Source of the DNA: a virus
Strand: one strand, 5' to 3'
UHGV virus genome: UHGV-0353264
Length of the DNA stretch: 43,216 bases
The position numbers were made by a program, and so were the translations under genes. Under the pieces are notes generated by a model. The model worked only from the letters and a program-made list of their open reading frames with translations, was not told the origin of the DNA and did not search any database. Positions 2,765-36,308 of this stretch are shown here, in pieces (the first letter of the stretch is position 1; every line of letters begins with the position of its first letter).

Positions 2765-4155
2765 GCTATACCTCTCTTTTTCATGGCATCGAGCAGGATG
2801 TCCTGCACTGTTCGTTTTGAGTTGCGCCGTTCCATCACCATTTCGTCCATAGTGTCGGCGGCGATAATGTGGTGAATGAACACCGGGCGGTTGTGTCCGG
2901 CCTGTATCTGCCTGGTGGGGCCGATACGTTCAATAATTTGCTGATATTGCTCCAGGTCCCACCAGTGTGAGAAAAATACCAGTATATTTCCGCCGTCCTG
3001 CATGTTCAGACCGTGGCCCGCGCTGGCTGGGTGTGCAAAGAGAACAGGAATCTTTCCGGAATTCCAGTCGCGCAGTGTCTGTGGATCCTGGTCGAGGTGA
3101 CGACCGCGAGGGAATGCTTTAAGCAAGCGTTCAAGATCGTGTTTCCAGTGATAAGCAACCAGCACAGGTGCGCCAGCTGCTTCGGTCAGTATGCTGTCCA
3201 GCGCCTGCAGTTTGGTGTCATGCAGTTCTGACCAACTTCCGGTGTCGTCTGTGTATACTGCGCCACTGGCGATTTGCAGACACTTCAGTGTCTTTGCCGC
3301 GGCGTTCGGTGCTTCGATGCCTTCGCCATTCAGCTCGAGGAACATTTCCTTTTCCATTTCACGATACTGCTGACGGGCCTTCGGCGGCATATCCACGCGG
3401 ATTACGTTATGGATGGGATCTTTGATATCGAACCAGTCGGCCGCATCCAGCGATAGGGTCACATCGGCTAACGCTCGCTGTATTTCACCCTGTGAGTGAG
3501 CAAACGGCTCCAGTTTGGTCCAGCTCTGCCCCGGAAACTGTATCGAGTTGAACCAGCGTGAGGTAAACGCGCCGTAAGTGCGTCCGAGACGTTGCCCCTG
3601 GTCCACAAACCACGCTTGTCCCCACAAATCTACCAGGCCGTTCGGTGCTGGCGTACCAGTGAGATTTATCCAGCGCCGGACATACTTATGCGCCACTTTG
3701 CCCAGCGCCGCCGCGCGCTTACCACCACCTCGCAGCCGGAAGGATTTTAGTCGGGTGCTTTCATCTGGAATGACAGTACCGAACGGCCATCGTTCTCCCA
3801 ATTCCTCAACCAGCCAGACAAGGTTATCGTAGTTGATGGTGAACACGCTCGCGTTGTTGTTCGCCAACGCTGCAGAGCGCGCTTTGGCATTACCAACAAT
3901 TGGTTGTACCTCGATATTGCGCAAATGCCCCCACTTCAGTGCTTCATCCGGCCATGTGCTGGCAGCCACGCGCAGCGGCGCGAGAACCAGCGCAGGTTGT
4001 GTTTCTGCACCCGCCATGAAGAGGTCTTCCAGCGTAGTGAGTGTCGCTACGGTTTTACCCATTCCCATACCCGCCCAGATGTTGCCGCGCAGAATGTTAG
4101 TTTGGTGATTGATTATGAGGTTTTGATAAATTCTGGGGTGGAATATGCTATTCAT
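2761..4155 (-). CDS. SNF2-family DEAD/DEAH-box helicase
   Basis: 464 aa; Walker A GMGMGKT, DExx-like box VIPDESTRLK, C-terminal helicase domain. Part of the phage replication module. Confidence 0.85.
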   Translation of the reverse strand: MNSIFHPRIYQNLIINHQTNILRGNIWAGMGMGKTVATLTTLEDLFMAGAETQPALVLAPLRVAASTWPDEALKWGHLRNIEVQPIVGNAKARSAALANNNASVFTINYDNLVWLVEELGERWPFGTVIPDESTRLKSFRLRGGGKRAAALGKVAHKYVRRWINLTGTPAPNGLVDLWGQAWFVDQGQRLGRTYGAFTSRWFNSIQFPGQSWTKLEPFAHSQGEIQRALADVTLSLDAADWFDIKDPIHNVIRVDMPPKARQQYREMEKEMFLELNGEGIEAPNAAAKTLKCLQIASGAVYTDDTGSWSELHDTKLQALDSILTEAAGAPVLVAYHWKHDLERLLKAFPRGRHLDQDPQTLRDWNSGKIPVLFAHPASAGHGLNMQDGGNILVFFSHWWDLEQYQQIIERIGPTRQIQAGHNRPVFIHHIIAADTMDEMVMERRNSKRTVQDILLDAMKKRGIA

Positions 4156-4184
4156 TAATACACCTATGGTAGAATATGGTCACT

Positions 4185-4206
4185 TCTCTCTCTCTATATA
4201 TATATA
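4185..4206. repeat. Dinucleotide simple sequence repeat (TC)5(TA)6 in the divergent promoter region
   Basis: tctctctctc tatatatatata read directly, 17 nt upstream of the ATG at 4223 and upstream of the RBS ggagg (4213-4217). Confidence 0.9.
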
Positions 4207-4222
4207 ACTAACGGAGGCGGGT

Positions 4223-5020
4223 ATGCCCCTGGCGAAAATATTTACAAAGCAAGTTTCTTTATTAACTATGTTTTCAGCGTTAGCTTATGCGATGGCATAT
4301 TATTTTCAGAAAGGTGTCGCATCGTATTATGGCTATCCAGACCTTTTTATTAAAATAGACTTAAATACGCTATTGTATTCGGCTGTGTGGCTTTTGTTTT
4401 TTAGTTTTTTATTTCTCGGCGCCTTATATGCGGCGTTGATGTTTGATTTGAAAGGAAAATATTATGTTCCATTTATTGTATTTATAGTTGTTATGCTAAT
4501 GGCTAATATTTGTATAATAGGATTTCATTGGCCTTTTGGTTATTTCTCCGAAACTTCTGTGATGAGTGTTCAGGATATTTTATTATTTGCTATGCTTTTG
4601 TTGAATTATCACAATGTGGTGTCTATGCCAATCCATAGTAAGAGACACGAACATCATATGGAGAGCATTAGAAAATTTGGGAGGCTTGCAGAGTATAAGA
4701 ACGTATTTTATTATATCGATTTAAAAATCCTAAAGTCAGCTTTTCCTTTAGGGGTGATAACGTTGTTGATATTGAGCTATACATTCGGGAAGGTTACTGC
4801 ATTTAAAAATAACGAATATTATATGGTAGATGGTAGTAATACTAAAGTGTTGCTCAATTCATTTGGTAGTGGTTTTGTTGTTGGTGATTGTGAGTCAAAT
4901 AGCGCAAAATTTGAATTTGTTAATGATTTAAAAGGGATGAGATTCACAATCATGTCCTCTAAAAAGGAAATAGCTAAATTAAAAGAGTGTTTCGAAATAC
5001 GTGTTAAAAATACGGATTAA
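4223..5020 (+). CDS. AT-rich multi-pass membrane protein of unknown function (moron)
   Basis: 265 aa, about four hydrophobic segments N-terminally and a soluble C-terminal domain; strongly AT-rich; opposite strand to flanking replication genes; good RBS. Confidence 0.6.
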   Translation: MPLAKIFTKQVSLLTMFSALAYAMAYYFQKGVASYYGYPDLFIKIDLNTLLYSAVWLLFFSFLFLGALYAALMFDLKGKYYVPFIVFIVVMLMANICIIGFHWPFGYFSETSVMSVQDILLFAMLLLNYHNVVSMPIHSKRHEHHMESIRKFGRLAEYKNVFYYIDLKILKSAFPLGVITLLILSYTFGKVTAFKNNEYYMVDGSNTKVLLNSFGSGFVVGDCESNSAKFEFVNDLKGMRFTIMSSKKEIAKLKECFEIRVKNTD

Positions 5021-5748: not shown

Positions 5749-6510
5749 TTACGAGGAAGCGTTAGCTATTTGAGCTTGTGTAAATTCGAAACCAGAATTT
5801 TGTAACCGTTGCACTAGACGAGGAACTGTTTCACGTACATGGTCGTTGAAATTCAGATACAAAATCCCGTTAGCATCAGAAGGCTGTTCTAGATGCTGTT
5901 TCTGAAGGATTGCTACATTGCTGCGCCCTAAGGACGAAAGAAGCATACCCATCTCGAGTACAACGTTCTGTCTTGCGCGGGGTTGGATTTCTGCTTCACC
6001 GGCGCGCTTTGAGTATCCCATATCATCAGGTGTCAAAAGAACAATCCCGAAACGGGTAGCAGTTTGTCCTTGCCCAATTTCACGTTCAAGCTCTTCAATA
6101 ATGGTGAGTCCAGTCCCTCCCGTATTCTGCAAAATGAAATGGTCTGGTAATCCAAGTTTATGAAGGATTAGCTCAAGTTGCTCCTTTGCAGTATGGTCAT
6201 GGCCGTGAACAATGAATATCTTTTTGGGGAGCTCAGATGGCTGTTCTACGGCTAGTGGTGTTGCCGTGGGCGGCGTTCCTAAATGGGTCATTATTGCAGT
6301 TTCAACATTGGGACGTTCTTGAGGGTTACCTTGAAACTGAATGGTCCGGGTGGTGTAAAGGTTAACAATTACGCCATTCGTTAAACGATAGCAGTCACAA
6401 GTCTCACGCTGTTCGTGGGAAAAATTGGTGAACCCACACTCCCTCAAAAAGTCAGGAAAAGATTCTCTCGGGTATGGATAGGTGATCGGCATTTCAGTTA
6501 GTTCCTGCAT
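5749..6510 (-). CDS. TIR-like domain nucleotide-binding protein (PF10137-like C-terminal domain) with unknown N-terminal domain
   Basis: 253 aa; C-terminal KKIFIVHGHD...FGIVLLTPDD...ARQNVVLEMGMLLSSLGRSNVAILQK matches the TIR-like signature as recalled. Lower GC than flanking polymerase; possible own promoter (ttgata in the 64-bp gap after the polymerase gene). Confidence 0.6.
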   Translation of the reverse strand: MQELTEMPITYPYPRESFPDFLRECGFTNFSHEQRETCDCYRLTNGVIVNLYTTRTIQFQGNPQERPNVETAIMTHLGTPPTATPLAVEQPSELPKKIFIVHGHDHTAKEQLELILHKLGLPDHFILQNTGGTGLTIIEELEREIGQGQTATRFGIVLLTPDDMGYSKRAGEAEIQPRARQNVVLEMGMLLSSLGRSNVAILQKQHLEQPSDANGILYLNFNDHVRETVPRLVQRLQNSGFEFTQAQIANASS

Positions 6511-6574
6511 AAGTATTGTTCCTTTAATTTACTCGAATTCAGCATGTCGCCATAGCTCGATAAGGTGAGTTATA

Positions 6575-8638
6575 TCAATCTTTTTTGTAGTGGTACGCCT
6601 CAAAACCGCCAGCGTTCAGTGGGATATCGGGCGCCCATTCGGGGTCAGTGGAGAGAAGCGCGGAAAGCGCTTTATCGTTGAAATCTTCTGTGTCAGGTGC
6701 TTCGGTGATCACCTCGTCGTGTACCGTCAGCACAATGCTGTAACCGGCATCTTCGATAAGCGGCATGTTTCCGGCCAGAATGTCGCGGGCGGCCGCCTGG
6801 GTGATGTTCTCCACCAGCTTTCCGCCGTAGGTTTTGAGTCGTTGCCATTTACGCGAATAAGAGTTAACCCCCATGTAGGTGATATTCCCTTTTTCGATAA
6901 CCGGAGACGGGTAGCATACAGCGCGTCCTGATGGTAGCTGTATGCGCAGCCACGCGCCATCGCGGCGGATTTTAAGATAACCGCAATACAATGTTTTTTG
7001 CGGTGTGGCGATTGCAGTGCGGACGGTGCGCTCCAGTTCGTACCAGAAATCACAGGTCGCGGGATGCGCCCGGCGCCAGAGACGTTTAAGTGAGTCGCAG
7101 GCGATAAATACCCGTTCAGAAAGCCCGTAGGTTGACTTGCGTTTAACCGATTCGTCGTACCAGCTTTTCGCCTCGCGGATAACATCGCGGGGAATGTTTG
7201 GTAGTGCGGCGTTCGCCAGCTCGTCGAGATCGAGACCGTAAACCAGTGCAAAAGTGATGAAGGCCGACACACCACCACCATAACCCAGACCGAGTTCCAT
7301 GACTTTACCGATCTGACGCATGTGTTTATCAACATCATCTGGTGCAATATCGAAAGCTTTTGCATACGCCAGTTTATATAAGTCCGGACCCGTTCCGGCG
7401 TCGTACTCTCTGAATGCATTCAGTTTCCATTCTTCTCCCGCCAGCCATGCCAGCATACGGCCTTCAATGTTCGACAAGTCACTTACCACCAGCTTTTTGC
7501 CTGTTGGCGCGATAATGCAGCCACGTAACGCTGAACTGGTTAGTTCCATGATATTGTCAAACAGCAGGTCTGCACATCCGGCTTTCAGTGCTTCGATGCC
7601 TTCGTCTATTTGTTCCTGTTTTAGTGAAGGGCGGGGAAGGTTCTGGGGCTGGAATAGCCGTCCGGCCCAACGACCGGTACGTGACGCCCCGCAGAACTGT
7701 AGCGTACCGCGTAAGCGCCCGTCGTGGCTTACGCCTTTCATCAGTGCCTTGTATTTACTGGTGCTGGTAGTACTGGCCTGCAGGCGGATAGCCAGCAGTT
7801 CTTTCACGGCAGATGGTAAATCGGGGTCGGCAATACGACGTTCCAGAGTACTGCGTTGCATGTCTGGTAGCTCCACACCGTAGGATTCAACAATGTGCTT
7901 AATCAACGCGTCTCGTTGTGTGGCTGCCTGCACTTCGCCATCAGTCATTTCCTGTGTACGCTTTGCCAGGCGCTTTTGTTCCTGGTCTACCGCGTCGATC
8001 GCAGCGCGTGCGAGTTCCACGTCCATGCAGACGCCCCGGTCATTGATCTGCTGATCACGATGCCAGAGCGCCAGTTCTGTCCCCTGATAATTCCACTTCG
8101 GCAGACGTTTATAGACTTCGCGCATTGCCTCGATATCCAGTCCGGCGTAAGCAACAAAGCGCCGCCATTCTTCCGGGTGGGTTTTGCTGGTGGCTCGGCG
8201 CAGTTTGCTGTTTTTCGGGCGTGGCTTACAGAACAGCTGGATCAGCGCTTTACCTTCTTTGTCCTTCGCTTTGTCTTGCGGGACGCCTAGTACTTCGCAG
8301 AGTTCCCCCAGAGACCCCGGGAGACCGTGCGCCAGCGCCTGCACCATTGTGTCGCGCCAACGTTCGACTGGCGGTGCCAGGCGCGGCATTGCATAACGCA
8401 GAACGGTGCGGTCGAAGTGAGAGTTATGGAAATAAAGCAGGGTTTCAGGGTCTGCGATTGCTTCGTATAAGCCGTGTGGAATACCACCACCGGCAGTGAT
8501 ATCCCACACGTTTACTGGCCCGTCGTTGATAGCCCATGCGAAAAGCATCACTTCAACGCCTTCGGCATACGCATGGGTACCGTTCGTAATAGGGATTTCG
8601 CAATAGGTTTCCAGGTCGCCCCATAGTATATTGGACAT
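6575..8638 (-). CDS. Family A DNA polymerase with N-terminal 3'-5' exonuclease
   Basis: 687 aa; exo motif WGDLET, polymerase motifs [16 protein letters not shown] and [10 protein letters not shown]. Confidence 0.9.
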
Positions 8639-8684
8639 GTGTTTACCTTGGTTTTTATTCTATTAACTGATTAAAAGATTAATT

Positions 8685-9314
8685 ATGCATATGATCCAAT
8701 ACTTGATTGACCATACAGAGCATCTGGAGAAAATAGCTGGATATATTTTTTCATGTTTGATTGTTATGGGAGTCTGGATAAGAAAGATCATTTTTAATTA
8801 TAAGTATAAAGAGCCTAAATATGTTAAGAAGTTAATTTTATATTTAGTTAAGTATGAACGTTATCTGGATGAGGAGGATAAGAGTGCCATAGAAAAAAGA
8901 ATAAATGATAAAATTATTCGTGATGCGCTGAAATTGCAATCCTCTTATAACCGAAGAGATGTTATTTACATTTGCAATAGATTAGACAAAAGACAGTATA
9001 TAAATCAGTTGGTTAAGCTTCAGAATTATATAGAGAAAGATAACGGAGTGTTTTTTATTAATGTTGATTTTTCAGGTTTTTTATTTATTATTAGTCGTCT
9101 GTTTTCCTTTCTGTGTTTTGTGCTGTTTACCCTTTTTTCTATTATCTGCATTATTTCCATAGGGCAAAATGAAGGCCTTTTAAATTATCTTGTGTATATG
9201 GTTATGATAATAGTTTTAGAGACTGTTGGTTTTTGGATGTATGATACTTTCCCGTCTAAGAAAAAGATCTGTGAACTAAATAAAGAATTGAGAAAGATTA
9301 AGATTCCTGAGTGA
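8685..9314 (+). CDS. AT-rich membrane protein of unknown function (moron)
   Basis: 209 aa; one N-terminal and two C-terminal hydrophobic segments; Lys/Tyr-rich; very AT-rich; opposite strand to the replication operon. Confidence 0.55.
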   Translation: MHMIQYLIDHTEHLEKIAGYIFSCLIVMGVWIRKIIFNYKYKEPKYVKKLILYLVKYERYLDEEDKSAIEKRINDKIIRDALKLQSSYNRRDVIYICNRLDKRQYINQLVKLQNYIEKDNGVFFINVDFSGFLFIISRLFSFLCFVLFTLFSIICIISIGQNEGLLNYLVYMVMIIVLETVGFWMYDTFPSKKKICELNKELRKIKIPE

Positions 9315-9366
9315 TTATACGCCTAATCAGTAGCCCGGTGTTTAACCGGGCGTCTATGAAGTAGGG

Positions 9367-9915
9367 TTAAATTAGTGCTTCAGCATCAGCACCTTCGCTG
9401 ATATCGTCGAAATCGTCAGCGCTTGCCACTCCGCCGCCAGCGAATGCATCGCCGTCTCGCAGGAACTGGACTCCGCCGAGTGAGGCATTAATGCGTTTAC
9501 CGAAATTATTGTCCTGTGCCCAGATATCGATAACGGCGTTTACATAGCACCCTGCATAGGGACGTCCGTCAGCCTGAATAAGTGGCGAACGATCGCGATC
9601 AAGAACAGCTGGGCGCGCTTTGTTAGCAGCATTCAGGAAGAAATTACCGGGGAAGCCTTCATACTCTGCTTTTTCATCACCATCATGCAGGCACAGATTG
9701 AGTTTTTTCTCCAGCTGGTTATAAATGGGCTCCCACTTCTCTCCCCATTTTTCCTTCGCTACCTGCTTCATAGCTTTACGGATTTCTTCCAGTTGTGGGT
9801 GTTTGGGTGACATTAAAAATACTGCGGAGAAACGTGGATCGCCTTCGCCGTTTACAGTTTTAGCTTCAAACAGAGACGGGAAGGCCAGACGAACATTGTT
9901 CAGCTTCAGTTTCAT
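9367..9915 (-). CDS. Phage single-stranded DNA-binding protein (DUF2815-like)
   Basis: 182 aa; N-terminus MKLKLNNVRLAFPSLFEA and acidic C-terminal tail (DDFDDISEGADAEALI) typical of SSB; sits next to the DUF2800-like nuclease. Confidence 0.6.
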   Translation of the reverse strand: MKLKLNNVRLAFPSLFEAKTVNGEGDPRFSAVFLMSPKHPQLEEIRKAMKQVAKEKWGEKWEPIYNQLEKKLNLCLHDGDEKAEYEGFPGNFFLNAANKARPAVLDRDRSPLIQADGRPYAGCYVNAVIDIWAQDNNFGKRINASLGGVQFLRDGDAFAGGGVASADDFDDISEGADAEALI

Positions 9916-16933: not shown

Positions 16934-17368
16934 ATGCGTAATATTCAACAGGTTTTAGAGCGCTGGGGTGGATGGGCTGCCGATAGCAACACCACAGTGA
17001 GCTGGGCTCCAATAGCGGCGGGATTTAAAGGGCTGGTAGTCAGCAGCTCGCCTGGCAGGCTGAGTTGCTGTGACGACGATGGCCTGATTATCGATGCTTG
17101 CGTCTGTCGGCTGCAGCAGGTCCGTAAGCCTGAGGAACTGGACGTCATTATGCTGTACTACGTCTACGGGGTAAGCAAACGTGAGATAGGGCGGCGGCGT
17201 CGCTGTTCTGAAGGATTTATCCGCCAGCAGTTGCAGGTAGCAGAGGGATTCATTGAGGGGTGTCTCTGCATGCTGGGTGTGAGCCTTCAGATGGATCCTG
17301 AGGTCGAAATTCAAAGGGATGAAAAAAGTATTAGTGCGCTACGCAAAAACTGCGCTACGCTGGTATGA
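16934..17368 (+). CDS. Q: Late gene antiterminator Q (phage 82 Q-like family)
   Basis: 144 aa; N-terminus LERWGGWAAD and Cys cluster CCDDD...CVC resemble Q82-type antiterminators as recalled; followed by a terminator and the lysis genes. Confidence 0.7.
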   Translation: MRNIQQVLERWGGWAADSNTTVSWAPIAAGFKGLVVSSSPGRLSCCDDDGLIIDACVCRLQQVRKPEELDVIMLYYVYGVSKREIGRRRRCSEGFIRQQLQVAEGFIEGCLCMLGVSLQMDPEVEIQRDEKSISALRKNCATLV

Positions 17369-17670: not shown

Positions 17671-17771
17671 GTATTCAGGGCCCACCGAAGGACGGCTCAT
17701 AACCCAATCCTGCGGGCGTATACGCAGGGCCCGCCTTTCAACAACACCCCGTAATGGCGGAGGTGGGAAGT

Positions 17772-18113
17772 ATGAAAATGCACAATGCTCCTCATTCCTG
17801 GCCTGACTTACTGGAACTCTTACAAAGTTGGTGGCGTGGAGATACGCCGTTGGGCGCAGTGGTTATGTCAATTGTTATGGCTGGCTTGCGCATTGCCTAT
17901 TTTGGCGGTGGCGGCGGCTGGAAACGAAAAACGCTTGAGATTTTGCTCTGTGGTGCTCTGACGCTGACCTTTGCATCCGCTCTTGAGTATGTTGGATGGC
18001 CTAAATCTCTTTCTGTTGCCATTGGTGGTGGTGTTGGGCTGATCGGTGTCGATGCTATTCGTGGGGCTGCAATGCGAGTAATCGGTAACAAGTTTGGTGG
18101 CTCTAAGGAGTAA
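17772..18113 (+). CDS. S: Class I holin, lambda S-like, with dual-start motif
   Basis: Transmembrane architecture and C-terminal charged tail resemble lambda S; strong RBS ggaggtggg precedes ATG-AAA-ATG (MKM) at 17772; an in-frame upstream ATG at 17754 is also possible. Confidence 0.8.
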   Translation: MKMHNAPHSWPDLLELLQSWWRGDTPLGAVVMSIVMAGLRIAYFGGGGGWKRKTLEILLCGALTLTFASALEYVGWPKSLSVAIGGGVGLIGVDAIRGAAMRVIGNKFGGSKE

Positions 18114-33360: not shown

Positions 33361-34428
33361 ATGTCACAGAACTGGATGAGACATTTCGAGCTGCAGCTTG
33401 TGGACTGGAACGGTCAGGGAATTGAGCTAAGTGATTTCAAAGTCACCTTTACGATCGACTGGTTCAACATCAGCAGCGCGTCCCGGGTAGGGACTATCAA
33501 AATTTATAACCTCTCGGCAGATACTGTGAACCGAATTACCGGGCAGGAGTTTTCGAAAGTGCGTCTGATTGCGGGTTACGACGGTATCGCGCCGGAGGTG
33601 TCGGCAAGCGACATCGGGACAGTGCGGGAAGTTGACGCGGCGGACGTGGGCCAGAGTGATGGTCGCAACTACGGACTGATTTTCAGCGGTGAAATTCGCT
33701 ACTCGGTCACAGGAAAAGACAGTCCGGTTGATTCCTACGTCCTGATTCAGGCAGCAGATACTGATCTGGCTTTTGCCACCAGTATAACCTCACAGACGCT
33801 GGCTGCCGGTTACACGGTCGCTGATGTGAACCGTGCGCTGATGAAAGACTTCGAAGCCAAAGGTGCGACCGAAGGCCTGACGCCTGAAATGCCTGCTACT
33901 GTATTCCCCCGGGGGCGGGTGCTCTTTGGCATGACGCGGCATCTAATGGATAACGTAGCCGGGCAATGTGGCGCAACATGGCAATTCGTGGATGGTCAGC
34001 GCCAGATGGTGGTGAATAATGAATATGTTCACGAAGCGATTGTGCTCAACAGCGCTACCGGGCTTATTGGCATGCCGCAGCAGACCATCGGCAACGGCGT
34101 AAACGTCCGCGCGCTTATTAATCCGAACATCCGGGTTAATGGGCTCATTCAACTGGATCAGGCTTCCGTATATCGCACCGAGTTGTCGAACAACGATATC
34201 GCTATGGCTGGTGGGCAGATCACCGACCAGAACACGGACGGAAATATTACGCTAAGCGGCACCACATCGCAGCCTGCCAGCATCGCAACGGATGGCGTTT
34301 ATATTGTGCGCGGGATTATGTACACTGGCGACACAAGGGGCCAGGCGTGGTACATGGATATGATGTGCGAAGCGCGCGGTGCGGCGGATCTTCGTTCGGC
34401 GTCGTCTTTACAGCGTGAGGTAGGATAG
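33361..34428 (+). CDS. Putative baseplate hub protein
   Basis: 355 aa; position corresponds to the hub gene in Mu-like tail modules. Confidence 0.45.
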   Translation: MSQNWMRHFELQLVDWNGQGIELSDFKVTFTIDWFNISSASRVGTIKIYNLSADTVNRITGQEFSKVRLIAGYDGIAPEVSASDIGTVREVDAADVGQSDGRNYGLIFSGEIRYSVTGKDSPVDSYVLIQAADTDLAFATSITSQTLAAGYTVADVNRALMKDFEAKGATEGLTPEMPATVFPRGRVLFGMTRHLMDNVAGQCGATWQFVDGQRQMVVNNEYVHEAIVLNSATGLIGMPQQTIGNGVNVRALINPNIRVNGLIQLDQASVYRTELSNNDIAMAGGQITDQNTDGNITLSGTTSQPASIATDGVYIVRGIMYTGDTRGQAWYMDMMCEARGAADLRSASSLQREVG

Positions 34429-34781
34429 TGAAAAAGTGGATTGTTATCGGACTCTGTTTCCTTCCGGGGTTAGCATTTGCTGCGAATCCTGGCGGTGTCA
34501 CGCTTCAGTGTGGTGGCTACAAATTAGAGTTGATTCCTGATTCATTGTTCAGGATTAATGGTGAGACAGTTACCTCCCAGAAAATCAAAACGCTCGGCAA
34601 CGGTAATGGAATGAAGGCGGATATGGGGCTTATGCCAGCCAAAGACGGTAACAATTACGGTTTCGAGTTCATTCGCCGTCCGGGTACCGAAACGCGTTTC
34701 TTGAATGTCCAACTACTGCAGAACAGCATGGATGCGCCGAGAATCATAGGTTCGTTTCCTTGTAAGAAGGTCGACGATTAA
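34428..34781 (+). CDS. Secreted (periplasmic) protein of unknown function (moron)
   Basis: 117 aa; GTG start with RBS gagg; Sec signal peptide MKKWIVIGLCFLPGLAFA; two Cys in the mature part. Confidence 0.5.
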   Translation: MKKWIVIGLCFLPGLAFAANPGGVTLQCGGYKLELIPDSLFRINGETVTSQKIKTLGNGNGMKADMGLMPAKDGNNYGFEFIRRPGTETRFLNVQLLQNSMDAPRIIGSFPCKKVDD

Positions 34782-34787
34782 TACAAT

Positions 34788-35318
34788 ATGTGCAATCAAA
34801 GGAATGAGGCTGTTGGCCTTGAAGTAGATACGATTTTGTCGTACTCGAGAGACAGGTATGAAGAAGTTAAGACAACATACAGGCGGTTAGAGGACAAAGC
34901 TAATTTTCTTCTTGCTGTGCTTGGTGTTGAGATTTCTGCATTATTAGCCGTTTTTGGGTCCTTTGAGCTGGGACAACAGTTAAAGACTAGTCTATCCGCA
35001 AGATTGTCTCTATTGTGTCTATGTTCATGTTTTGTATGTTTGGTTTTTTGTTTTTATTATTTATGGAAATGTTGGGAACTTAGAAATATTCCCAAAATGC
35101 CTGTGCATCGAACACCTGAACAACATGAATTTCTTCTGAGGGGTAGTAGAGATGACACAGTCAGATTTCATTTGATAATGTATGGTAGGGCTATTGATAG
35201 AATCGAGAAAATCCATAAAGAAAAATCAGCGTTTGTGAATGAGTTGTTTCGATGGATGGTTATGTCATTTGTATTTTTTATTATTTCCGTAACGTGCATG
35301 TTAATAAGTAAGGTTTGA
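34788..35318 (+). CDS. Two-transmembrane-helix membrane protein of unknown function (moron)
   Basis: 176 aa; strongly AT-rich; hydrophobic hairpin (LLAVLGVEISALLAVFGSF, LSLLCLCSCFVCLVFCFYYLW) plus a further C-terminal hydrophobic segment. Confidence 0.5.
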   Translation: MCNQRNEAVGLEVDTILSYSRDRYEEVKTTYRRLEDKANFLLAVLGVEISALLAVFGSFELGQQLKTSLSARLSLLCLCSCFVCLVFCFYYLWKCWELRNIPKMPVHRTPEQHEFLLRGSRDDTVRFHLIMYGRAIDRIEKIHKEKSAFVNELFRWMVMSFVFFIISVTCMLISKV

Positions 35319-35320
35319 AT

Positions 35321-35494
35321 ATGTCCTGTCCAGAAGACCAAAATGAACCACAACCTAAACCAAGTGAGCCTGAGGTCTCTTTCCTAGATAACTATGAGCA
35401 AGAGATTATGGCTAGAGTACCTTTCGGGGATATCGAAATTATGACGGAAAGCTATCACGACAAGCCTTCAACTTTTCCCAAGAAAGATAGTTAG
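35321..35494 (+). CDS. Small acidic protein (57 aa)
   Basis: ATG at 35321, 2 nt after the upstream stop; translation MSCPEDQNEPQPKPSEPEVSFLDNYEQEIMARVPFGDIEIMTESYHDKPSTFPKKDS. Not in the ORF track. Confidence 0.3.
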   Translation: MSCPEDQNEPQPKPSEPEVSFLDNYEQEIMARVPFGDIEIMTESYHDKPSTFPKKDS

Positions 35495-35511
35495 TGAAGT
35501 TCTTATAAATC

Positions 35512-35537
35512 AAACCCGCCACCAGGCGGGTTTTTTG
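35512..35537 (+). terminator. Strong rho-independent terminator closing the tail-module moron cassette
   Basis: Stem cccgcc/ggcggg with loop acca followed by tttttt. Confidence 0.7.
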
Positions 35538-35555
35538 CTTTCTGGAGCCTACTAA

Positions 35556-36308
35556 ATGGCCGTATCTGACCAGACCCGCAGCGGCGACCTTGCCGAAACA
35601 TTCAAATCTGAACGGGAAACAACAAAGAACCAGATCCGTGTCGCCTTGCCTGGCGTTATTCAGTCATTCGATCCTGATGCGGTGACGGCAGTTGTGCAGC
35701 CTGCTATCCGTTCGGTTGAAAAGGATAATGACGGCAACCGCATTACCCAAAATTACCCATTGCTGGTGGATGTGCCAGTGGTATTCCCGCGCGGCGGAGG
35801 ATGCACGCTAACGTTCCCAGTTAAAGCCGGTGATGAATGTTTGATGATTTTTGCCGATCGTTGTATTGATTTCTGGTGGCAGAACGGCGGGATACAGGAG
35901 CCTGTTGATGACAGAATGCATGATTTATCGGATGCGTTTTGTATTGTCGGTCCCCAGTCGCAGGCAAGGAAGATTAGCGGTATTAATACCAGTGCTACAC
36001 AGTTGCGTAGTGACGACGGCAGCACCTATTTTGAGCTTAATCCTGATACCAGGAAAATTAAAATTGTCGCTCCGGGGGGCCTTGATGTGGTTGCCCCTCT
36101 GGCTGATTTTTCTGAGAAAGTAACCATTCATGGCCTGTTAACCTGGATGGGGGGCATGGTGGGGTCTGTTGTTTCTGGTGTAGCTTCAAAAATCACTGGT
36201 GCTGTTGAGTTTTTGGGTAGCGTGAAGGCTAACGGCAAGCCAATCGATGATACGCACACTCATGGCGGTGTTCAGCGCGGTGGAAGCAATACCGATGGGG
36301 TAAACTGA
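35556..36308 (+). CDS. Baseplate central spike protein (gpV / Mu gp45-like)
   Basis: 250 aa; N-terminal VKAGDECLMIFADRCIDFWW and DLSDAF motifs typical of gpV-like spike proteins. Confidence 0.7.
   Translation: MAVSDQTRSGDLAETFKSERETTKNQIRVALPGVIQSFDPDAVTAVVQPAIRSVEKDNDGNRITQNYPLLVDVPVVFPRGGGCTLTFPVKAGDECLMIFADRCIDFWWQNGGIQEPVDDRMHDLSDAFCIVGPQSQARKISGINTSATQLRSDDGSTYFELNPDTRKIKIVAPGGLDVVAPLADFSEKVTIHGLLTWMGGMVGSVVSGVASKITGAVEFLGSVKANGKPIDDTHTHGGVQRGGSNTDGVN

Follow-up and report, generated by a model that had tools for sequence, protein, structure and literature searches.

The interval between the baseplate hub and spike genes of an Escherichia coli IAI1 prophage is a fixed cargo hotspot of moron type. 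In this prophage it holds two genes, tm176 and ac57, which form a conserved functional pair and, to judge from their sequences, probably encode a membrane-acting phage-exclusion or toxin-like module. The DNA analyzed (43,216 nucleotides of UHGV virus genome UHGV-0353264, referred to here in its entirety as the window) is a prophage of E. coli IAI1 (NC_011741.1) at 100% identity; its lineage has a myovirus tail module and Q-type late control, with Brunovirus SEN34 as the classified relative. An initial annotation had described a single AT-rich cassette of three genes, encoding a secreted protein (gene 1, here sec117), a membrane protein (gene 2, tm176), and a small acidic protein (gene 3, ac57), closed by a terminator and interpreted as a lysogenic-conversion or superinfection-exclusion moron. 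The three open reading frames (ORFs), the terminator, and the low G+C content are all present in the sequence, and the observation is real but mis-parsed: sec117 and the terminator are conserved backbone, and tm176 and ac57 alone are variable. The interpretation is thus partly supported, being broadly correct for the tm176/ac57 pair, and wrong for gene 1 and the terminator. The relevant features are as follows.

33361 to 34428, plus strand: baseplate hub gene, Mu gp44-like (phrog_196 'baseplate hub', 1e-87)
34428 to 34781, plus strand: sec117, secreted protein of 117 amino acids (aa), backbone (from the ORF list; GTG start, 1-base overlap with the hub stop)
34782 to 35496, strand not given: variable cargo segment of the hotspot (match borders and G+C of 0.378, z = -5.2)
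34788 to 35318, plus strand: tm176, 176-aa inner-membrane protein, putative effector (phrog_18554, 5e-60)
35321 to 35494, plus strand: ac57, 57-aa acidic protein (phrog_18231, 2e-6)
35512 to 35539, plus strand: intrinsic terminator, hairpin plus T-run (hairpin search, 35512-35533)
35556 to 36308, plus strand: baseplate spike gene, N-terminal domain and apex motif (Pfam PF18352, 6e-44; PF18946)
16934 to 17368, plus strand: Q-type late antiterminator of the same prophage (Pfam Phage_antitermQ, 1e-50)

The hub-spike interval is a cargo hotspot

The loci compared were those of phages vB_EcoM-689R2, YP3, and SEN34, 13 species-representative loci, other E. coli chromosomes, 14 IMG/VR contigs, and Klebsiella phages. 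The gene order, seen in more than 30 loci, is always the same, with the hub gene followed by a sec117 homologue, a variable stretch of 400 to 1400 bp, the terminator, and the spike gene. The hub is 91 to 97% identical in most enterobacterial relatives, and the spike gene is present in all loci examined. In vB_EcoM-689R2, YP3, and SEN34, a sec117 homologue (60 to 84% identity) lies directly after the hub and is followed by unrelated genes. The initial annotation had taken tail modules to be contiguous at this position, but hub and spike are not adjacent in any related locus found.

On the left, the slot is bounded by the sec117 stop codon, and on the right by the conserved terminator upstream of the spike gene. 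Among the megablast matches shown, those to other E. coli genomes either end at query positions 338 to 344, just before the sec117 stop, or cover only positions 1070 to 1128, which correspond to the terminator and spike leader; because the matches stop at these borders, the cargo in the window is 34782-35496, exactly tm176 and ac57. Of the 5426 complete E. coli genomes, only 8 match over 80% or more of the query length; partial matches occur in about 195, and those shown are mostly to the 5' 340 bases, that is, to gene 1.

The AT-richness reported for the cassette holds for tm176 and ac57, which jointly (34788-35494) have a G+C content of 0.38 (z = -5.2 relative to the late region), but not for sec117 (0.472, z = -1.8), whose composition is ordinary and equal to that of the wedge gene. 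Taken singly, tm176 has a G+C content of 0.365 and ac57 of 0.420, with a late-region mean of 0.521 (standard deviation, 0.027). The tm176/ac57 pair is rare, deviant in G+C content, present in this phage, and absent at the same position in relatives, where it is replaced by unrelated cargo; sec117 and the terminator are not absent from relatives but conserved. A terminator does follow the genes of deviant composition, as expected of a moron, although it is common to all cargo types. Conservation across related phages, which the initial annotation regarded as speaking against its interpretation, was found for sec117 and the terminator, and not for tm176/ac57. Synteny and composition together rule out a single three-gene moron.

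The cargo of relatives includes a 192-aa protein with a YafO-family toxin (Pfam, 4e-17) in loci L007 and L009, a 217-aa protein matching phrog_8545 ('superinfection exclusion Sie-like', 2.5e-16), and a DUF2335 membrane protein (phrog_3996, category moron). Other slots hold small secreted or membrane-anchored proteins, a pair of 243-aa and 142-aa proteins, or a reverse-strand zinc-ribbon ORF. Cargo proteins of 170 to 173 aa (L001, 2897-3409; L016, 4809-5330) contain the sequence IRNNLFHGG, an R-x4-H motif, and match only phrog_19013, a family of unknown function. The R-x4-H motif in these proteins is reminiscent of HEPN RNases; we considered such an assignment for the 170-aa and 142-aa proteins on the strength of this motif, but neither Pfam nor PADLOC confirms it. 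In Citrobacter (L010) and in L035, the slot contains a second, very divergent membrane-protein/peptide pair, whose identity to tm176 is 23% by tblastn (L010) and 17 to 18% in the family alignment.

tm176 and ac57 form a conserved pair

The ac57 ORF can be read as 59 aa from a TTG (35315-35494) or as 57 aa from the ATG at 35321, and homologues keep the 57-aa form. The protein contains 13 aspartate plus glutamate residues and 5 lysine plus arginine (K+R) residues, lacks a signal peptide, and is probably disordered. Near its C-terminus, at residues 40 to 45, it has the motif I-M-T-E-S-Y, which is followed by a basic tail. A small hydrophilic ORF (34 to 70 aa), homologous or analogous to ac57, is located 3' of every tm176 homologue for which downstream DNA was read (about 30 loci, with 14 of 14 IMG/VR loci having it), either a few bases from the membrane-protein gene or overlapping it. 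These partner ORFs have in common a hydrophobic-T/L-E-S/Y-hydrophobic motif and a basic tail, as in IEIMTESY in the window, LGVATESF, KVVTESY in Citrobacter, and VEVCLESF on a nonphage contig. The motif is also present in the partners of distant homologues, which vary in length (L030, 38 aa; L033, 43 aa; L050, 34 aa; L052, 58 aa; L035, 70 aa; L010, 61 to 65 aa). At least six distant homologues (P0145, P0147, P0153, P0160, P0167, and P0174) are fusions that carry the motif peptide at the membrane-protein C-terminus; P0152 and P0165 have long C-terminal tails without a clear motif.

The co-occurrence and the fusions argue strongly that tm176 and ac57 are linked physically or functionally, and we conclude that they are a conserved functional pair in which ac57 is the obligate partner. 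The suggestion that the small acidic protein is a partner of the membrane protein is thus borne out by co-occurrence, the common C-terminal motif, and fusion.

Members of the tm176 family are rare. Word-based searching yielded 18 clusters, a second such search with a 40-sequence profile added almost nothing, and an exhaustive HMMER search across 1.84 billion representative proteins yielded 37. The PHROG matches (phrog_18554, phrog_23273, and phrog_18231) are all to families of unknown function. A distant homologue adjoins restriction-modification and helicase genes, so the module is not confined to phage tails. It lies in a three-gene block (L030/L031, 4317-5637) consisting of a DUF4760 gene, a 172-aa tm176 homologue, and a 38-aa peptide. 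On two contigs this block has the same right flank, and the left flank is a GajB-like UvrD helicase on one and a Type IIG restriction-modification enzyme on the other, which suggests that it moves within a defense-island-like region.

tm176 and ac57 were acquired horizontally and are under purifying selection

A tm176 of 90% identity is common in Salmonella enterica, where it lies in this same slot. Comparison with the Salmonella copy gives 90% aa identity and a synonymous divergence (dS) of 0.41 for tm176, compared to 67 to 68% and 1.29 for the spike, and 91% and 0.88 for the sheath initiator; sec117 is 59 to 61% identical with its synonymous sites saturated. The converse is seen in locus L044, where the hub (96%) and spike (97%) are highly similar to those in the window, and tm176 is only 52% identical. 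Because the identities of tm176 and its flanks disagree in both comparisons, cargo and backbone have different histories, which supports tm176 plus ac57 as a horizontally acquired two-gene module and moron-type insert. The ratios of nonsynonymous to synonymous divergence (dN/dS) relative to the Salmonella copy are 0.11 for tm176 and 0.19 for ac57; both genes are real and under purifying selection. The RefSeq (PGAP) annotation of IAI1 has no coding sequence across window positions 34782-35555 (775 bp; L005, 3355-4128), and tm176 and ac57 are thus unannotated in this reference genome despite their PHROG matches and these dN/dS values.

tm176 is predicted to have three membrane helices

The initial annotation had described the 176-aa protein as a two-helix hairpin. 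We find three hydrophobic helices, at about residues 39-58, 74-93, and 156-175, and an AlphaFold model made with a 40-sequence alignment (predicted local distance difference test score, 90.6) contains helices at 13-58, 69-96, 110-118, and 121-175. Family-wide K+R counts of 8.1 for the N-terminal part, 1.1 for the first loop, and 9.6 for the middle part indicate a predicted topology with the N-terminus inside, the loop outside, the middle part inside, and the C-terminus outside. A conserved helix with the pattern Y..ERYEE...RRLEDK precedes membrane helix 1 in the family, a cytoplasmic helical stretch of about 60 aa precedes helix 3 in tm176, and residues E35, K37, and K146 are near-invariant.

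sec117 is a fast-evolving backbone gene

A Sec-type signal peptide (MKKWIVIGLCFLPGLAFA, followed by A) was identified in the 117-aa product of sec117, in agreement with its description as a secreted protein, and the protein has two invariant cysteines and is predicted to form a small beta-barrel. The gene lies directly after the hub in all of the 30-plus related loci, down to about 30% identity in Klebsiella phages, and its family comprises 389 clusters across Enterobacterales, with the RefSeq name 'STY1065/STY2022 family phage-derived protein'. It nonetheless diverges far faster than the hub and sheath-initiator genes, being 57 to 76% identical in most enterobacterial loci versus 91 to 97% for the hub, with variability greatest in the N-terminal half of the mature protein.

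We ruled out a virion component on the basis of the signal peptide and the conserved cysteine pair; we infer this because a Sec-exported protein cannot join a virion assembled in the cytoplasm. In structural comparisons, all matches scored 8.0 or below, including Cap15 (7.0), avidins (about 6.5), and the type VI secretion system immunity protein BtaiB (6.3). The periplasmic peptidoglycan-hydrolase inhibitors PhiA (6.0), PliC (6.0 and 5.6), and MliC (5.1) are also among the matches, at 4 to 16% identity to sec117, but many unrelated small barrels score equally or better. The tape-measure protein of relatives carries a lytic-transglycosylase (SLT) domain, and sec117 may plausibly have a periplasmic inhibitor or exclusion role, for example, against this domain.

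A conserved terminator follows the slot

The terminator hairpin (35512-35533) has 9 pairs, 6 of them G-C, is followed by a T-run, and lies directly before the ribosome-binding site of the spike gene. All three elements (hairpin, T-run, and ribosome-binding site) recur together in 17 of 20 loci, whatever the cargo. Across the 20 loci, 95.5% of cells are paired and 4 pairs have compensatory changes, values that were reached by none of 500 shuffles and by no slid register.

We found no conserved sigma-70 promoter for tm176/ac57, and thus none whose transcripts would give the conserved terminator a function. The only sigma-70-like site (34760-34787, 9 of 12 matches) abuts the tm176 ATG, and we rejected it as a promoter because the Salmonella copy has no conserved site there; a promoter may lie farther upstream, within the hub gene or sec117. 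The tm176 start is 6 nucleotides after the sec117 stop, and the spacing is 2 to 10 nucleotides in eight relatives with a readable junction. In classical morons, antiterminated late transcription passes the terminator and nonantiterminated transcripts stop there. By analogy with lambdoid phages, we infer that Q-modified transcription would read through the terminator at 35512, and that any nonantiterminated transcript would end at it.

Possible functions of the tm176/ac57 module

Our leading hypothesis, held at somewhat less than even chances, is that tm176 works like a PycTM-type membrane effector. The broader description of tm176/ac57 as a moron-type membrane effector with a regulatory peptide, acting in abortive infection, exclusion, or a toxin-antitoxin-like manner, is offered with the same tentativeness. 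According to this hypothesis, tm176 would be a membrane-perturbing effector in the general class of the short Pycsar PycTM effectors, working without the cyclase. The T-E-S-aromatic motif of ac57 would bind the cytoplasmic helical region of tm176 and so hold the effector in check or trigger it. In this scheme ac57 would serve as regulator or sensor, much like an antitoxin or the fused antitoxin domain of CapRel-type systems. Upon infection, the peptide would be lost, titrated, or modified, releasing the effector and depolarizing the membrane, and this depolarization would abort the infection or exclude a superinfecting phage.

The similarity to PycTM comes from three PADLOC PycTM models, which match tm176 with E values of 2.6e-4 to 1.5e-3, and which reach 0.01 or better for 11 of 40 family members (lowest E value, 2.2e-5). 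Faint precomputed matches to PF18967 are also seen on 90%-identical homologues and on P0150. The evidence for the pore-forming abortive-infection effector suggested in the initial annotation consists of these weak profile matches, and tm176 is a tentative candidate for such an activity.

Several observations weigh against the PycTM-like hypothesis. The PycTM similarity is weak and mainly involves the N-terminal helix and first two membrane helices, and the composition of membrane proteins can raise such scores. Pfam PF18967 itself gave no match to tm176 at an E value of 1 or below and none to the 40 family members at 0.01 or below, and a Foldseek search of the tm176 model against PDB and BFVD found nothing better than E = 0.3. 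The tight spacing of tm176 behind sec117, together with the lack of a conserved promoter, means that expression could be late and lytic only, which would fit poorly with a defense role in the lysogen. The predicted outside location of the tm176 C-terminus would place the fused tails in the periplasm, and the free peptide has no signal sequence. Finally, none of 10 alternative cargo proteins matches PADLOC, so that although a moron hotspot is demonstrated, a defense hotspot goes beyond the evidence, and we ruled out the strict form of that claim.

Membership of a Pycsar system proper is not indicated. No pyrimidine cyclase (PycC) is found among the called neighbors in any locus, and the slot holds tm176 and ac57 only; the adjacent cyclase by which a Pycsar member would be recognized is therefore missing. 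A more far-reaching proposal is that tm176/ac57 represent an undescribed anti-phage or toxin-like family, in which a three-helix effector distantly derived from PycTM is paired with a short acidic T/L-E-S-aromatic peptide, separate or fused, that replaces nucleotide signaling, and which resides in prophage tail hotspots and chromosomal defense islands. We regard this extended version as doubtful.

Of the alternatives to the PycTM-like hypothesis, the one that survives best, although we consider it unlikely, is superinfection exclusion (Sie), with tm176 in the inner membrane blocking DNA injection, perhaps together with sec117 binding or inhibiting a tail-tip component. HK97 gp15, T4 Imm, and P22 SieA are injection-blocking proteins of this kind. 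The location of the slot in the tail module beside the tape-measure, hub, and spike genes would suit such a role, as would the cotranscription of tm176 with the gene for periplasmic sec117, the tape-measure SLT domain of relatives, the Sie-like protein among the alternative cargo, and the evolution of sec117, which is much faster than that of its neighbors, like that of arms-race proteins. On the other hand, tm176 has no homology to known Sie families in Pfam or PHROG, with no similarity at the sequence or profile level, and a tblastn search with tm176 of 50,697 phage records returned no matches. The distant homologues located away from phage tails, beside restriction-modification and helicase genes, argue against a lineage-specific injection block, and exclusion would leave the need for a cytoplasmic acidic peptide unexplained.

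Less likely still is a selfish addiction module resembling toxin-antitoxin systems, in which tm176 would be the membrane toxin and ac57 a labile antitoxin. Cell death upon loss of the module would keep it in the hotspot, and it would stabilize the prophage or simply hitch-hike, with no dedicated anti-phage role. The two small genes are tightly coupled, the smaller product is acidic and probably disordered, the same slot holds the YafO toxin pair in L007 and L009, and the fused forms recall fused toxin-antitoxin proteins of the CapRel type. However, searches of Pfam, NCBIfam, and PADLOC linked neither tm176 nor ac57 to known toxin or antitoxin families, despite their adjacency and tight spacing, and a toxin-first gene order is the less common one. 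We also note that toxin-antitoxin and abortive-infection roles are not mutually exclusive, and addiction therefore overlaps with the effector-plus-peptide explanation.

An equally low likelihood attaches to the pair being a lytic-cycle accessory, made late from the Q-antiterminated tail transcript and not acting in the lysogen; possible roles are lysis timing, preventing reinfection of the lysing cell, and countering host defense. The close coupling of tm176 to hub and sec117 in the late operon, with no conserved independent promoter found, is in accord with this, and a Q antiterminator is present, so the pair would be transcribed late whatever else happens. Yet the prophage has a complete lysis cassette elsewhere with a lambda S-type holin (17754-18113), the two genes are dispensable in most relatives, some homologues are outside phages, and the conserved terminator behind the slot makes little sense without a nonantiterminated transcript that ends there. 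A holin function for tm176 was rejected, given that no holin family is matched and the lysis cassette lies elsewhere.

Relationship to known systems

Morons of HK97 and HK022 were reportedly described by Juhala and colleagues in 2000, and the superinfection-exclusion moron gp15 of HK97 is said to have been described by Cumby and colleagues in 2012. Phage P2 has a cargo hotspot, Z/fun, downstream of its baseplate genes (Rousset et al. 2022, PMC9122126; Egorov et al. bioRxiv 10.1101/2024.10.15.618418). The hub-spike slot resembles the HK97/HK022 morons and P2 Z/fun in placing a variable, AT-rich insert among conserved structural genes, with a terminator behind it and with late antitermination, and its cargo likewise differs among related phages, including a toxin of a toxin-antitoxin system and a Sie-like gene. 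It is unlike them in that the lineage combines a Mu-like baseplate with lambdoid Q control and has Brunovirus SEN34 relatives, and in that the borders are owned by the backbone (the secreted-protein gene on the left and the terminator on the right) with no moron promoter detected.

The PycTM effectors of Pycsar (Pfam PF18967; PADLOC PDLC02363-02365) were reportedly described by Tal and colleagues in 2021. They are similar in size to the tm176 family (154 to 165 aa versus 165 to 185 aa), and in both a charged N-terminal helix runs into the membrane helices. Unlike in Pycsar, no pyrimidine cyclase is adjacent at any tm176 locus, and the conserved partner is instead a peptide of 34 to 70 aa. The general picture of CapRel-type fused toxin-antitoxins is alike in that a potentially toxic protein has a small partner, separate or C-terminally fused, and is prophage-borne; these systems differ in that there is no homology, and the larger protein here is a membrane protein and not an enzyme.

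Cargo hotspots in phage tail modules are thus already known, but the anatomy of this slot and the membrane-protein/TES-peptide pair appear undescribed, with no description of either found in the libraries and literature searched. With its exact borders, the hub-spike slot provides a site for mining widespread enterobacterial prophages, in the manner of the hotspots of P2 and P4; Salmonella, Klebsiella, Citrobacter, and Yersinia are among the genera with related loci, and most slot cargo is without known function. The rare and small tm176/ac57 pair is a candidate for a new module that acts at the membrane in exclusion or abortive infection, and may be related to the Pycsar effectors while lacking the cyclase. 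If it does represent a new peptide-controlled family, the slot would be a minable reservoir of further unknown systems.

Other features of the prophage and its relatives

The spike and sheath-initiator genes abut in the window. Between them, SEN34 (L003, 5235-5372) and a Logan contig (L035, 6703-6840) have an extra 45-aa ORF, and an IMG/VR relative (L048) has an IS3-type element (6504-8017; orfA and orfB, minus strand) that replaces the spike C-terminus.

Further AT-rich patches with a G+C content of 0.32 to 0.38 are present outside the structural genes, at window positions 4001-5000 and 8501-9500. An Acyl_transf_3 gene (Pfam, 4e-18; 40276-41247, minus strand) lies in the AT-rich block directly after the tail-fiber assembly gene, and the arrangement recurs in L021, L022, and L024. 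This gene probably serves lysogenic conversion by modifying the O antigen, and would mark a second cargo site of this phage lineage.

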